64,000 bases of DNA from Dehalococcoidia bacterium (GTDB lineage: Bacteria > Chloroflexota > Dehalococcoidia > DSTF01 > WHTK01). The DNA lies in the NCBI GenBank assembly GCA_009377745.1, contig WHTK01000003.1, positions 2,568 through 66,567 on the forward strand, in the 5' to 3' direction. The notes under the pieces are model-generated. The model was not told the origin of the DNA and did not search any database. It was given only the letters and a program-made list of their open reading frames with translations. Positions 395 through 10,083 of the stretch are shown here, one piece after another (the first letter of the stretch is position 1; each line of letters starts with the position of its first letter). Position numbers and translations under genes: made by a program.

Positions 395-1111
395 GTGACC
401 GCCGCGAGAGAGCCGGGCTCGGTCGACCCGGGCGTCAAGATTGAGGACGCCGACCAGCGCCTCGCGGACTGGGTAGGCTCTGTGCTTACGGACGTCGCGG
501 TCTCCTTCGACCCACCCCAGGCTGAGGCAGAGGGCAGGGGCGTGAGCCTCTATCTCTATGAAGTGCGGCCGGAGGCGCCGCTGCGCAGCCGCACTCCGCC
601 ACTGCAGGCCTCGCTGCGCTACCTGGTCACGGCCTGGGCGCCGACTCAGCCCGAGGCGCATACGCTGCTGGGTGAGCTGATCTTCGCCGCCCTGGACCAC
701 CACGAGATGGAGCTGGAGGCGGAGTCCTTTCCGGCTGAGGCCTGGGCGACGTTCGGGGTTGCGGTGCGGCCGTCGTTCGTGCTGCGGGTGCCGTTGCGCC
801 GCGAGCGTCAGGAGCAGCCGTCGAAGCTGGTGCGCCAGCGACTCGTGGTGCAGACGGCGGCGCTCGTGCCGTTGCGGGGCGTCGTCCTGGGGCCGGAAGA
901 CATTCCGCTGGCCGGGGCACGCATCGAGATCGCGTCGCTCAACCTTTCGACCGCCACGGATGGACGGGGGAGATTCGTCTTCCCGTCCGTGCCGGGTGGA
1001 GCCAATCCAACGACCTTGAGAGTTATCGCCAAGGGCAAGGAGCTGACGCTGGCCGCGCGTGCGGCCTCGGACGAGCCTCTTGTCATCCGGTTCGGACCGC
1101 TGGAGGACTGA
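395..1111 (+). CDS. CIS cap/terminator protein, Pvc16/Afp16-like (DUF4255-type N-domain) with C-terminal carboxypeptidase-regulatory-like beta-sandwich
   Basis: GTG start after a GAGGT RBS. The N-terminal part resembles the Pvc16_N family found in eCIS loci. The C-terminal RIEIASLN..DGRGRFVF motif is CarboxypepD_reg-like. First gene of a coupled tail operon. Confidence 0.55.
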   Translation: MTAAREPGSVDPGVKIEDADQRLADWVGSVLTDVAVSFDPPQAEAEGRGVSLYLYEVRPEAPLRSRTPPLQASLRYLVTAWAPTQPEAHTLLGELIFAALDHHEMELEAESFPAEAWATFGVAVRPSFVLRVPLRRERQEQPSKLVRQRLVVQTAALVPLRGVVLGPEDIPLAGARIEIASLNLSTATDGRGRFVFPSVPGGANPTTLRVIAKGKELTLAARAASDEPLVIRFGPLED

Positions 1112-1112
1112 C

Positions 1113-6924: not shown

Positions 6925-9527
6925 TGCCGCTGCAGTCGCCGAACCTGGACGACCGGAACTTTGCGCAACTGGTCGAGGAGGCAAAGGCGCGTATTCGTGC
7001 CACGGCGCCGGAGTGGACGGACATGTCGGCCAGCGACCCCGGCATTGTCCTGCTGGAGCTGTTCGCCTACCTGACGGAGTCGCTGATCTACCGGCTCAAC
7101 CGGCTGCCGGACAAGGCCTACACGGAGTTCCTCAACCTGATCGGCGTGCAGCTCTATCCGCCGGCCGCATCACGCGTGACGCTGGTGTTCAGCCGCGCCC
7201 GCGCCGGTGAGGCCGTCGAGATCCCGCGCGGCACCCGCGTCACCGTCAGCCGCGCCGCCTCCGGCGAGGAGCCGCCCGTCTTCTCCACCGTGCAGGCCGC
7301 GACCCTGCCGGCCGGCGATACGAGCATCGAGGTTACGGCGTACAACTGCGACCTCGTCATCGCCGAGCAGGCGGACCAAGGCAGCGGCCGCCCCGGGCAG
7401 CAGATCGCCGCCAAGCGGCCACCGCTGATCGCGCCGACGGGCGATGAGCTCGACCTGGTGCTGGGGGTCGAGGCGGAAGCCGGCGAGCTGGGAGAGCGCG
7501 TACCGGCCATCCGTCACGAGACCAAGACCTACCGCGTCTGGCGGGAGGTCAGCCGCTTCGCCAACCTGGGCGACGACCGCCACGCTTACGTTGTCGACCG
7601 TGTGACCGGTACGATCAGCTTCGGACCGTCGGCCCATCCGGAGCCGGAGGGCACGGATTCAGAAGCTCTACCGTCCTCGCCGCTGGCAGAGGTACCCCTG
7701 GCCGGACGCGAGATACGGCTCTGGTACCGGCGCGGCGGCGGCGCTTCCGGCAACGTGCCGGCAGGCGCGCTGACGACGCTGAAGGACCCGATCGCGGGGC
7801 TGGAGGTCACAAACCCAGAGCCGGCCGTGGGCGGCCGCGAAGCCGAGACGCTGGAGAACGCGCTGGTGCGCGGGCCGCAGAGCCTCTTCCGCCTGGAGCG
7901 CGCGGTTACGGGCCGTGATTACGAGATGCTGGCCCTGGCGGCCTCCCGCGCAGTGATGCGGGCGCGGGCGTTCACGACGTCGGTGATCTGGGCGCACGCC
8001 AATCCCGGCACCGTGGAGCTGCTGCTGGTGCCGCACCTGCCGGAGAACCAGCGACCCGGCGGCCGGGTTACGGCCGAAGCGCTGAAGGAGCAGGAAGTCG
8101 AAGAGGTGCGGGCGCAGATCGAAAGCCTGCTCGATGTCAGGCATCCGCTGGGCGCTACGCTGCGGGTAAACTGGGCACGCTACAAGACCGTCCGCGTCGG
8201 CGCCCGCATCGTGGTGCGGCGCGAGGAGGACATCGCGGCGCTGCGGCAGCGCGTCGTCGAGCGGCTGCAGCTGACGATCAACCCGCTGCCGACGCGCTTC
8301 AACGCTGCGGGCTGGTCCTTCGGACAGGCTCTGCGCGCCTCCAACGTCTACGAGATCGCCCTCTGGGAGCCGGGCGTGCGCTGGGTCGATAACGTGCGGC
8401 TGCTGGTCGAAAAGGTGCCGGACAGCGGCGTCGAATCGATCGCGGCGGACGCCTTTCAGGCCGACACCTGGTTCGCTGGCAGCGCCGAGACGCTGTTCCG
8501 GTCGCTGAACGATGGCGCCGGCTGGGAGCCCGCGGGCGAGTTCCCCGGCGAGAAGATCGAAGTGGTGCGCACCCACCCGGACCGGGCCGGCTTCATCGCC
8601 GCTGTTACACGGCTGCCGGATGATGGCGGCACCCAGCTGCACATCTCGCGAGACTGCGGCGAAACCTGGGAGGCATCGTCTCGCGGTCTGGCCGTGTATG
8701 ACGTGGCCTGGGCGCTGCGTGACGGCAACCCGATCCTGTATATCGCCGCTGACAACGGCCTTTATGAGCTATCGATGACGCCGGAGAGCTCGCCGGTCCA
8801 GGCCCTGGTGGATGAGTCAGACCAGACGCGGGGTTTCTATGCCGTGACCGCGTTCAACGACTCCGAGGGCGACCTCACGGTCGCGGTGGCATCGACGGAG
8901 ACGGGCGGCGTTTATTTGTCGAGCTCCGGCGGACGCGTGCCTTATCGCAACATCGGCCTCAGCGGGCAGGACATCCGGGTGTTGGCCGTCCAGCACGATA
9001 ACGTGCGGCGCCATCTCTGGGCCGGCGCCGCCGCGCCCGGTGGCGACGCTCCCGGCAGCGGCTGCTTTCACATCGAAGTGACGCGGGCGCGGGAGGTGAC
9101 CAGCCAATCGAGCTGGAACGCGCGCGGGCAGGGCTGGTCAGGCGGCAGCTGTCGCGCCATCGGCTTCGTGGGGAGGATGCTCTACGCGGCCTCCCACCAC
9201 GCCGGAGTATTGCGACTCGATTCCAGCAGCGCCACGCCGGCCTGGGAGCCACCGGAGGTGACCTGCGGCCTGCCGCTGCGTGACCGCGCTCAGTTCCTCT
9301 TCCAGCCCGTCGATACCGTGGCGGCGACCGGTGATTTGATCATGGCGGGCGGCCTGGAGGGAGTCTTTACCAGCCGCAATGGCGGCGCCACTTATGAGCG
9401 CGCCTCCAGTAAGGAGTACCGCGAAGCCGTGACGCTGCCGAATACCTGGCTGTTCTGCTCCGGTGAGCACGAGATCAACGTCGTCAGTGAAGACGAGGTG
9501 CGGCAGGATGAAGAGCGCGGAAATTGA
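6924..9527 (+). CDS. baseplate J-like protein (gp6/Afp11-like) fused to C-terminal BNR/Asp-box repeat domain
   Basis: ATG at 6924 (MPLQSPNLDDRNFAQLVEEA...LELFAYLTESLIYRLNRLPDKAY) is typical of baseplate J. The C-terminal half carries SLNDGAGW, SRDCGETW and SRNGGATY Asp-box motifs. Confidence 0.75.
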   Translation: MPLQSPNLDDRNFAQLVEEAKARIRATAPEWTDMSASDPGIVLLELFAYLTESLIYRLNRLPDKAYTEFLNLIGVQLYPPAASRVTLVFSRARAGEAVEIPRGTRVTVSRAASGEEPPVFSTVQAATLPAGDTSIEVTAYNCDLVIAEQADQGSGRPGQQIAAKRPPLIAPTGDELDLVLGVEAEAGELGERVPAIRHETKTYRVWREVSRFANLGDDRHAYVVDRVTGTISFGPSAHPEPEGTDSEALPSSPLAEVPLAGREIRLWYRRGGGASGNVPAGALTTLKDPIAGLEVTNPEPAVGGREAETLENALVRGPQSLFRLERAVTGRDYEMLALAASRAVMRARAFTTSVIWAHANPGTVELLLVPHLPENQRPGGRVTAEALKEQEVEEVRAQIESLLDVRHPLGATLRVNWARYKTVRVGARIVVRREEDIAALRQRVVERLQLTINPLPTRFNAAGWSFGQALRASNVYEIALWEPGVRWVDNVRLLVEKVPDSGVESIAADAFQADTWFAGSAETLFRSLNDGAGWEPAGEFPGEKIEVVRTHPDRAGFIAAVTRLPDDGGTQLHISRDCGETWEASSRGLAVYDVAWALRDGNPILYIAADNGLYELSMTPESSPVQALVDESDQTRGFYAVTAFNDSEGDLTVAVASTETGGVYLSSSGGRVPYRNIGLSGQDIRVLAVQHDNVRRHLWAGAAAPGGDAPGSGCFHIEVTRAREVTSQSSWNARGQGWSGGSCRAIGFVGRMLYAASHHAGVLRLDSSSATPAWEPPEVTCGLPLRDRAQFLFQPVDTVAATGDLIMAGGLEGVFTSRNGGATYERASSKEYREAVTLPNTWLFCSGEHEINVVSEDEVRQDEERGN

Positions 9528-10083
9528 CCGGCTGCTGCCGGGCGTCTTCCAGCAGACGCTGGAGGACGAGCATGGGCCCCTGCGCGCCCTGCTCGGCGTC
9601 ATGGAGGCGCTGCACCAGCCGGTCGAGGACGTCCTCGGCTCGGTCGATGCGGTCTTCGATGCCTACCGGACGCCGGAGAGCTTCGTTGCCTACCTTTCCG
9701 GTTGGCTGGACCTCGACTACCTGCTGGCCGAAGGCTCCGGCCCCGGTAAGACCTACGAGCTACCAAGCGGCTCCGCCAACCTGCGCGAGCTGATCGCGGC
9801 GGGAGCGGAGCTGATGCGCTGGCGCGGCACCAAGCCGGGTTTGATCTCCTTCCTGGAGACCGCGACCGGCGCCAGCGGCTTCAGCATCGATGACCAGACG
9901 CCGGGGCCGGACGGCCTGCCGAGGCCCTTCCATATCCGCGTCGATATTCCGGCCGCGGCGGAGCCCTACCGGGCGCTCGCCGATGTCATCGTGCGGGCGG
10001 AGCGGCCGGCCCATATTACGTACGAGCTGAGCCCGCCTGCCGAGGCGGCAGCCCCCGCGGGAGGTGATGCCAATCCAGGCTAG
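9508..10083 (+). CDS. P2 gpI-like tail/baseplate protein (Afp12-like)
   Basis: MKSAEIDRLLPGVFQ...FVAYLSGWLDLDY resembles the phage tail protein I family. 20-nt overlap with baseplate J. Confidence 0.6.
   Translation: MKSAEIDRLLPGVFQQTLEDEHGPLRALLGVMEALHQPVEDVLGSVDAVFDAYRTPESFVAYLSGWLDLDYLLAEGSGPGKTYELPSGSANLRELIAAGAELMRWRGTKPGLISFLETATGASGFSIDDQTPGPDGLPRPFHIRVDIPAAAEPYRALADVIVRAERPAHITYELSPPAEAAAPAGGDANPG

Follow-up and report, generated by a model that had tools for sequence, protein, structure and literature searches.

The closest solved relative of the gene cluster considered here is CIS-Sc, the contractile injection system (CIS) of Streptomyces coelicolor (lineage IId; PDB entries 8bky, 9gtp and 9gts). 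This system has no fibres, a tape-measure gene is absent from its cluster, the stoichiometry of its wedge has been said to resemble that of pyocin R2, and firing requires CisA, a bitopic protein with a cytoplasmic N-terminus whose gene comes straight after those of the baseplate (PMC12237407). A further system of lineage IId, near the Streptomyces CIS, was imaged in Roseiflexus as particles inside the cells, unattached in the cytoplasm (PMC12998442). Loci of extracellular CISs (eCISs) "invariably" encode an AAA+ ATPase (PMC10020575), which is one of the eight subunit types found in > 85% of eCIS loci (PMC6899500). We analysed a 64,000-nucleotide stretch of contig WHTK01000003.1 from a Dehalococcoidia bacterium (Chloroflexota; assembly GCA_009377745.1), hereafter the window, in which positions 395–10083 are predicted to encode a complete, minimal contractile injection particle. 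The cluster is ordinary in being related to the Streptomyces system, and unusual in having no ATPase and in carrying its own ruler or cargo candidate, spike tip, propeller and tether. Its best reading is a cytoplasmic, membrane-docked CIS; the parts were identified directly, and the mode of action that they suggest is one that we hold with slightly better than even confidence.

An initial annotation of the window had likened the cluster to the cytoplasmic CIS of Streptomyces, and this likeness held. The sheath, Cis11, Cis12 and cap all found their best PDB matches in CIS-Sc, and the two loci share a cap gene upstream of the sheath gene, a wedge formed by Cis11 and the small Cis12, the lack of a tail fibre and of a canonical tape-measure gene, and a gene for a bitopic membrane protein after the baseplate genes. 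The eleven open reading frames (ORFs; g1–g11) at 395–10083 are all intact, lie on the plus strand and form one tightly packed operon, with gaps from g1 to g11 of +1, -8, +7, -1, -4, -4, 0, -4, -1 and -20 nt, in that order. These gaps bore out the translational coupling that had been proposed, and the start/stop overlaps listed at the time are real except at 6155, where g7 and g8 merely abut (TAG followed directly by ATG). Most of the protein labels given earlier were confirmed by Pfam, with the two qualifications noted below for g8 and g11.

The first gene, g1 (395–1111, 238 aa), encodes a cap or tail terminator (Cis16/Afp16-like) with a Pvc16_N domain (1.1e-11, 45 bits against a cut-off of 27 bits) and a C-terminal CarboxypepD_reg beta-sandwich (3.5e-7), and in the PDB sequence search it matched the Streptomyces Cis16 chain 9gts_0A weakly (0.0057). 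It is followed by g2 (1113–2348, 411 aa), a short form of the contractile sheath Cis2 with Pfam sheath domains at 1.7e-20 and 4e-14. The top PDB matches of g2 were the Streptomyces CIS sheaths (8bky/9gtp, 5e-106; 8bl4/9gts, 4e-103), and the sheaths of the Anabaena thylakoid-anchored CIS (tCIS; 7b5h, 1e-51) and of PVC and Afp (~1e-50) were also matched; its alignment with the CIS-Sc sheath fell into three stretches, the 534-aa sheaths holding ~120 extra residues. The inner tube (Cis1/gp19-like) is encoded by g3 (2341–2820, 159 aa; Phage_T4_gp19, 3.3e-33), the VgrG-like spike Cis8 by g7 (4634–6154, 506 aa; Phage_GPD, 4.5e-14; Phage_base_V (gp5-OB), 1.4e-19) and the gp25-like sheath initiator Cis9 by g9 (6493–6924, 143 aa; GPW_gp25, 1.6e-26). 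The small wedge protein g11 (9508–10083, 191 aa; Cis12/P2 gpI-like) had been labelled gpI, for which the Pfam evidence was weak (Tail_P2_I, 0.005); the label was backed by TIGR02242 (1.1e-12; 48.1 bits, slightly below the cut-off of 51.85 bits) and by 9gtp_E (Cis12, 4.1e-7), its top PDB match. All of the following eCIS core types (PMC6899500) are present: tube (Afp1/5), sheath (Afp2/3/4), LysM protein (Afp7), spike (Afp8), gp25 (Afp9), J (Afp11) and terminator (Afp16).

In this cluster Cis7/Afp7 is divided between g5 (3901–4455, 184 aa; CIS_tube, 7e-10), the N-terminal tube-initiator domain, and g6 (4452–4637, 61 aa; LysM, 3e-6; gp53, 3e-4), the C-terminal LysM module, which are joined by an ATGA overlap. 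Most relatives encode a single g5–LysM fusion protein of ~250 aa. The split is a genuine gene fission, because two independent metagenomic relatives (L085 and L087; 77–91% identity) carry the same split. An assembly error or a pseudogene was ruled out by this recurrence in diverged, independent metagenomes.

The initial annotation had regarded the cluster as a stand-alone system and not a prophage, with no phage head, terminase or integrase genes beside it. Both statements were upheld. Genes for a capsid, portal, terminase or integrase were found neither among the 51 window ORFs scanned against Pfam, which cover 54 kb downstream, nor in Logan contig L001, which is identical to the window over their overlap and extends 8.6 kb (~9 kb) upstream of the window start; this ruled out a prophage tail. 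Because the flanks are housekeeping genes and the same cassette recurs in isolation in many phyla, the identification as a stand-alone CIS is supported. A decaying phage tail or a non-functional CIS remnant could be imagined from the loss of three usually important components, the ATPase, the tape measure and the fibres, and from the two-ORF Cis7. However, the eleven ORFs are intact and translationally coupled, the gene set, its order and the missing items are alike across six phyla, the Cis7 split has been kept in diverged relatives and phage genes are lacking on both sides, so that decay is very improbable.

The relatives of the cluster showed how widely this arrangement occurs. The database contained 7990 sheath relatives at E <= 1e-10, thousands of them close; the best 120 were ~66–72% identical to g2, apart from a few metagenomic ones at 83–91%, and the named ones among these 120 came from Chloroflexota, Actinomycetota and one Opitutales metagenome-assembled genome. 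A scan of one genome per species yielded 80 loci, which were annotated by BLAST against the window proteins. About 30 loci (L003–L033, L058 and L074) share exactly the gene order of the window: cap, ~400-aa sheath, tube, a variable gene of 314–679 aa, a ~250-aa Cis7-like gene, ~505-aa spike, ~113-aa protein, gp25, ~860-aa J protein and ~180-aa I protein. These compact loci were found in at least six phyla (Chloroflexota, Actinomycetota, Acidobacteriota, Myxococcota, Pseudomonadota and Planctomycetota), with hosts that include Micromonospora, Arthrobacter, Catellatospora and Actinopolymorpha among the Actinomycetota and Nitrosomonas, Caulobacter, Chromatiaceae and Aureimonas among the Pseudomonadota. 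Their sheaths are 54–70% identical across phyla. In a neighbour-joining sheath tree, which was crude, without resampling and built without a reference subtype set, the compact loci formed one clade, and the Streptomyces-type loci and two further eCIS types fell outside it. The sheath scan also retrieved a different type of CIS in L034–L057 (Myxococcota and others), whose two sheath genes (~400 aa and ~590 aa) are each followed by a ~145-aa tube gene in the best-covered loci.

The compact loci differ from the Streptomyces-type loci (L067 and L071–L084) in most of their components. The Streptomyces-type loci encode a sheath of ~505–530 aa, as against 411 aa in the window, and two tube genes ~3 kb apart, where the window has one tube gene and one initiator gene; compared with CIS-Sc, a single tube-initiator gene stands in place of Cis1b plus Cis7. 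They also encode a canonical 93-aa PAAR protein instead of the PAAR-fold protein with a CHCC site described below, and a Cis11 of ~650 aa, as opposed to 867 aa with an extra C-terminal propeller. In addition, their cap gene is followed by an AAA+ ATPase gene (Walker A, GDSGTGKT) that is absent here. The long sheath (~510–530 aa), two tube genes, canonical PAAR, ~650-aa Cis11 and cap-adjacent ATPase of IId loci are all lacking in the window. The Roseiflexus system, one of the intracellular CISs of Chloroflexota and Deinococcota, belongs to the same phylum as the window and could be set beside it by its published description, according to which its cluster includes an ATPase gene (PMC12998442), unlike the compact locus. 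Compared with Afp, PVC and AlgoCIS (lineage I and others), the cluster lacks the Afp15 ATPase, the Afp13 fibre, the Afp14 tape measure and the large Afp12, has a cap-first gene order and contains no recognisable toxin genes with N-terminal loading signals.

The absence of the ATPase was consistent across the lineage. BLAST with three Cis15-like queries detected the ATPase in 10 of 10 Streptomyces-type loci for which the upstream region was available, and also in four loci of a different eCIS type; it detected none in L001 or in any of the 20 compact loci whose flanks were complete (+/-10 kb). In the 64-kb window, tblastn with the same number of queries gave nothing better than E > 0.3 and the Pfam scans found no AAA domain, in agreement with the statement in the initial annotation that no Afp15-like ATPase was in view. 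The accompanying suggestion was to look for the ATPase and tape measure in the ~10 kb upstream, and a location there was ruled out, as L001 contains other genes. A Walker-A scan of the 20 compact loci for an alternative, non-homologous ATPase in the flanks revealed no P-loop family conserved across loci. Pfam and NCBIfam searches likewise gave no tape-measure or fibre family among the proteins of the CIS region. The lack of the ATPase, of tail fibres and of a canonical helical tape measure appears, on this comparative evidence, to be a trait of the whole compact lineage. The compact clade fails one defining feature of eCISs as now delimited, the locus-encoded ATPase. ATPase-deleted mutants of Streptomyces and PVC still assemble particles (PMC10020575).

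The variable fourth gene, g4 (2828–3901, 357 aa), had been left unnamed in the earlier gene list. It encodes a lineage-specific protein rich in proline (16%) and alanine (19%), for which searches of Pfam, NCBIfam, PADLOC and PDB sequences returned nothing. Its equivalents in relatives, 314–679 aa long, cannot be aligned by BLAST. Both ends are conserved, the N-terminal end as an amphipathic helix with an 'HWL' motif, PP(A/R)HWL..V, and the C-terminal end as WPxLP...RLxxEQRG(..WNA), and hidden Markov models (HMMs) of the two termini matched the gene at the equivalent position solely in compact-clade loci and in no other CIS type, including the Streptomyces-type loci. The GC signal at third codon positions is atypical, and the pattern of GC over codon positions fits a P/A-rich ORF; a spurious ORF was ruled out by the conservation of both termini across phyla. 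The gene sits between the tube gene and the tube-initiator gene, a slot that holds the tape measure in phage tails and pyocins and Cis6 in Afp and PVC. Because g4 combines conserved ends with a low-complexity middle of variable length in the tape-measure slot, its product may lie inside the lumen of the tube and act as a non-helical ruler, as an ejected cargo, or as both.

The 113-aa product of g8 (6155–6496) is a spike-tip protein with invariant C12, H14, C48 and C59. It had been labelled DUF4280, and HMM searches did not support this: none of 21 family members matched DUF4280 (PF14107), and one of 21 matched PAAR_motif (PF05488), weakly (0.022). All 41 homologues in the database were without any Pfam domain, hhalign against canonical PAAR proteins gave a probability of 7%, and searches of PDB sequences and of PADLOC/NCBIfam returned no match. 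The likeness to PAAR was settled by fold comparison alone, in which the AlphaFold2 (AF2) model of g8 was clearly a PAAR fold. The gene adjoins that of the VgrG-like spike, and the predicted product is a conical PAAR fold with a metal-binding Cys/His site for Zn.

In g10 (6924–9527, 867 aa), the baseplate wedge protein Cis11/J is extended by a BNR/Asp-box beta-propeller. Residues 1–~495 correspond to Cis11 (Baseplate_J, 3e-14; TIGR02243, 1.7e-76, exceeding the cut-off) and matched 9gtp_1K (Cis11, 652 aa) at 1e-60 as a single sequence and at 2.4e-104 as a family profile, the top PDB match. Residues ~500–867 form the C-terminal propeller, in which Asp-box repeats at residues 500–600 matched GH74 xyloglucanases, sortilin VPS10 and BNR glycosidases (5e-10 to 1e-4). 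The extension has been kept across the compact clade, in which Cis11 is 843–898 aa long. This BNR/GH74/sortilin-like propeller is one ground for a different explanation, an extracellular, tailocin-like CIS that is released by lysis and whose ~12 Cis11 propellers bind targets in place of fibres; the membrane proteins encoded downstream would then be a lysis, immunity or effector set and not a docking site. The Pvc16_N cap and the PAAR tip, which eCISs also have, are compatible with such a particle. Against it, described eCISs load cargo with the Cis15 ATPase (PMC11495950), absent here, and those of its nearest relatives that have been characterised work inside the cytoplasm (PMC12237407, PMC12998442). 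An extracellular particle is the main rival, which we regard as possible but rather unlikely, and the genes downstream of the baseplate bear on it further. R-type pyocins and P2-like tailocins share with the locus the lack of an AAA+ ATPase and a wedge of gp25, J and a small gpI-like protein. Pyocins differ from the locus in that they possess a lysis cassette, tail fibres and a helical tape measure but no Pvc16_N-type cap.

Five plus-strand genes follow g11. The first, g12 (10181–10486, 101 aa), encodes a small, holin-sized membrane protein with three predicted transmembrane helices. In L085, L087 and L088, which are close relatives, it likewise comes directly after the Cis12 gene, a position that is not conserved in other phyla. 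Next is g13 (10499–11284, 261 aa), whose polytopic membrane product carries an HEAGH (HExxH) motif near its C-terminus; among the relatives examined it was found only in L085, the closest of them, and it is possibly a variable accessory, such as an effector or, given the zinc-protease-like motif, a processing protease. Neither protein matched a family in Pfam, NCBIfam or PADLOC, and g13 also had no PDB match. The two genes intervene here between the Cis12 gene and a pair of paralogues, g14 (11292–11990) and g15 (12074–13021), which encode the bitopic partner of the CIS. Each has an N-terminal MSP/PapD-like domain of ~120 aa, and the N-terminal parts are 55% identical. The g14 protein, a match to the HMM of the partner family, continues with a transmembrane helix (132–150) and a C-terminal PG_binding_1 domain (Pfam, 3.4e-21); in g15 the beta-sandwich occupies residues 12–119 and is followed by a transmembrane helix (131–155 in the AF2 model, 136–154 by hydropathy) and a different C-terminal domain. 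Six nucleotides after g15, g16 (13028–13510, 160 aa) encodes a protein with an N-terminal transmembrane helix or signal anchor and no family match in Pfam or PADLOC; equivalents of 159–162 aa follow the partner gene in L085, L087 and L088. The closest relatives thus retain g12, one partner gene and g16, and g13 and g14 vary. Next to g16, on the minus strand, lies a gene for a very hydrophobic 257-aa protein with several transmembrane helices and no family match (13514–14287), and equivalents of 253–293 aa occur at the same position in L085, L087 and L088.

The partner is closely tied to the compact cassette. Its family HMM matched in 22 of 25 compact loci and in none of the other CIS types, and the gene overlaps or trails the Cis12 gene by <= ~0.5 kb in 21 loci and lies upstream in L027. 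The Streptomyces-type loci compared reach no more than ~0.7 kb past the Cis12 gene, or stop short of it. A word-index search found two homologues, so an exhaustive profile search was needed; this returned 2353 clusters at 50% identity, 1824 of them at E <= 1e-10. Among the best 150 matches of the 2353 clusters, the conserved domain begins within ~20 residues of the N-terminus in 149, and total lengths range from 152 to 988 aa. The C-terminal parts of the larger partners sampled comprised PASTA repeats, DUF11/CARDB/NEW3 Ig repeats and a Laminin_G_3 lectin domain, and that of the Ktedonobacter partner is a Kelch propeller. PASTA and PG_binding_1 are extracytoplasmic wall-binding modules. No signal peptide heads the conserved N-terminal domain, which lies before the sole transmembrane helix. 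Because the C-terminal wall-binding modules are extracytoplasmic and an N-terminal signal peptide is lacking, the predicted topology must be N-in/C-out, with the conserved domain facing the cytoplasm. The AF2 model of the g15 N-terminal part (pLDDT 91.8) is a beta-sandwich followed by a transmembrane helix, and Foldseek matched the domain to ASH, MSP and PapD-like domains, including the MSP domains of VAP-A and Scs2 (6e-6 to 2e-4; TM-score ~0.45–0.55). The MSP domains of VAP-A and Scs2 are cytosolic peptide-binding modules of membrane-anchored tethers. The fold is common, and the modelled likeness to MSP/ASH tethers is only suggestive. As a separate observation, L004 carries a Cis12-like gene fused to an FHA domain (18618–19664, 348 aa) and no MSP-like partner was detected there, which hints at an alternative link to phospho-signalling.

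These genes bear on the extracellular particle in both directions. The holin-sized g12 with its three transmembrane helices and the PG_binding_1 domain of g14 would suit release by lysis, as would a 482-aa cell-wall hydrolase with Amidase_2, SpoIID and two LysM domains that is encoded 6 kb downstream of the CIS genes (16440–17888, plus strand) and could contribute to lysis or release or be an unrelated housekeeping enzyme. Nevertheless, g12 and this distant amidase are the only tailocin-type lysis candidates present, and neither is conserved with the cassette beyond the closest relatives. Furthermore, release from the cell would leave unexplained why a conserved, CIS-linked domain faces the cytoplasm. 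The initial annotation had left open whether the particle is of an eCIS/tailocin type or intracellular, and the partner genes would favour an intracellular, membrane-docked mode.

We suggest the following mode of action for a cytoplasmic, membrane-docked CIS. The particle would assemble in the cytoplasm without an ATPase, with g4 in the tube lumen as a non-helical ruler, ejected cargo or both, which would remove the need for ATPase-driven cargo loading. The periphery of the baseplate would bear the Cis11-fused BNR propellers instead of fibres. The bitopic partner, represented here by g14 and g15, would recruit the particle to the inner face of the cytoplasmic membrane through its cytoplasmic MSP/PapD-like domain, possibly by way of the Cis11 propeller, which co-occurs with the partner, and its variable ectodomain would grip the cell wall. 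Docking would then trigger sheath contraction, by which the tube with its spike and tip, perhaps accompanied by g4, would be driven across the envelope of the producer itself. The cell could thereby lyse itself in a regulated way, as Streptomyces does, or deliver a single shot outwards. In position and topology, the partner would be an analogue of Streptomyces CisA.

Several points weigh against this proposal. The intracellular mode is drawn from gene neighbourhood and the predicted topology of the partner, and the role of g4 from its position and conservation pattern. BNR/GH74/sortilin propellers are typically extracellular ligand binders, and an extracellular receptor-binding role would fit the Cis11 extension equally well. 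Together, g12, the peptidoglycan-binding domain of g14 and the amidase 6 kb downstream could form a release or lysis module. An unlinked ATPase gene elsewhere in the genome is possible, as the window and L001 together cover ~73 kb of it. In the crude sheath tree, the compact and the Streptomyces-type clades are not immediate sisters. Finally, the N-terminal domain of the partner is folded, whereas that of CisA, compared here by its description, is reported to be disordered (PMC12237407), and the two may not be homologous.

The same evidence for anchoring by the partner would also fit an outward-firing device resembling a type VI secretion system (T6SS), in which the partner anchors the baseplate and a single shot delivers the spike/PAAR tip, g4 and perhaps g13 to neighbouring cells, without death of the producer. 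Such a device could account for the variable genes that follow the partner and for the HExxH membrane protein. It has a precedent in the fibre-less, membrane-anchored T6SSiv and BIS with Aasi_0556 homologues, which, like the thylakoid-anchored tCIS, share with the locus the concept of an anchor protein in place of fibres (PMC12210884). The anchors of T6SSiv, BIS and tCIS are nevertheless unrelated in architecture to the partner with its MSP/PapD-like domain, single transmembrane helix and wall-binding ectodomain. Canonical T6SSs (i–iii) have a two-part TssB/TssC sheath, in contrast to the single phage-type sheath protein here, and none of the family scans of the window detected such a sheath, a TssJ/L/M-type trans-envelope complex or a ClpV-type recycling ATPase. 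No recognisable toxin or immunity pair was seen either. In addition, the cassette occurs in both thick-walled monoderms and diderms, for which a common outward route is uncertain. We consider this device improbable.

If a membrane-docked CIS without an ATPase is confirmed, the ATPase would be left with a narrower role, one that a working CIS can dispense with, a second, independent solution to membrane docking would be at hand and engineering would gain a compact chassis. Non-phage CISs are now recognised partly by their AAA+ ATPase, and for the question of how fibre-less intracellular CISs find the membrane and fire there is so far one characterised factor, CisA. The compact lineage offers a natural, ATPase-free minimal system of 10–12 genes in cultivable bacteria of several phyla, together with a clearly delimited candidate for the membrane tether and a protein that may be a non-helical ruler or cargo. 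One CIS census demands at least 10 recognised core genes (PMC8213781). Because screens require this number or count the ATPase among the common subunits, published censuses (PMC8213781, PMC6899500) may under-count or miss the compact clade. Our literature search turned up neither an ATPase-less CIS lineage nor the partner family, which is not proof of absence, and the clade may already be listed under subtype IId in dbeCIS/eCIStem. That the compact loci constitute a very widespread, uncharacterised, ATPase-free class of CIS, with a disordered g4 protein in the lumen, a Cys/His tip, a Cis11 propeller and a VAP-like docking tether, is put forward here only tentatively.

The genomic setting of the operon gave some indications of its control and origin. 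Positions 1–394 had been described as non-coding; this applies to 27–394, the intergenic leader on the plus strand, and positions 1–26 are the 3' end of a 5'-nucleotidase gene (stop codon at 24–26). The leader holds one sigma-70-like site (TTGTCA-18-CATAAT, 174–203), the sole promoter-like match in 14.5 kb, and this promoter candidate is only suggestive, as ~1.1 such matches would be expected by chance over that length. Besides the 5'-nucleotidase gene, L001 contains genes for a PAS-GGDEF protein, a cupin and a DUF5122 protein. It also encodes, on the opposite strand (4995–6715 of L001) and 2.3–4 kb upstream of the cassette, an ECF sigma factor and a putative anti-sigma factor. The regulators near the cassette vary among the compact loci; those in L003 (597–2897, Ktedonobacter) and L004 (5–5554) belong to the STAND proteins (NB-ARC/NACHT-TPR) and contain HTH or GerE domains.

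The GC content is 0.67–0.70 over the first 10 kb and 0.60–0.66 in most of the remaining window, and the cassette lies 4–7 percentage points above much of it (0.60–0.65 at 18000–40000). This contrast and the presence of the cassette in six phyla would fit an acquisition by horizontal transfer. The window contains no tRNA genes. Beyond the membrane-protein genes lie the cell-wall hydrolase, beta-helix and CAP proteins, an exopolysaccharide cluster, prs, secA and NAD kinase, followed further downstream by leucine and isoleucine–valine biosynthesis genes with a T-box leader. The beta-helix proteins are encoded on the minus strand at 17930–19378 and 26066–28096, one of them with a CAP domain, and their genes adjoin the exopolysaccharide/sugar-nucleotide cluster (21746–34270), which includes a Wzz-tyrosine kinase, a sugar transferase, epimerases and UDP-glucose dehydrogenase. 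The T-box leader (59304–59573, minus strand; RF00230, 103 bits, E 1e-21) is located directly 5' of a minus-strand gene for a TPP-dependent enzyme (57183–58916; TPP_enzyme_N/M/C), probably ilvB, and leuA- and leuCD-type genes lie further downstream of it on the same strand.

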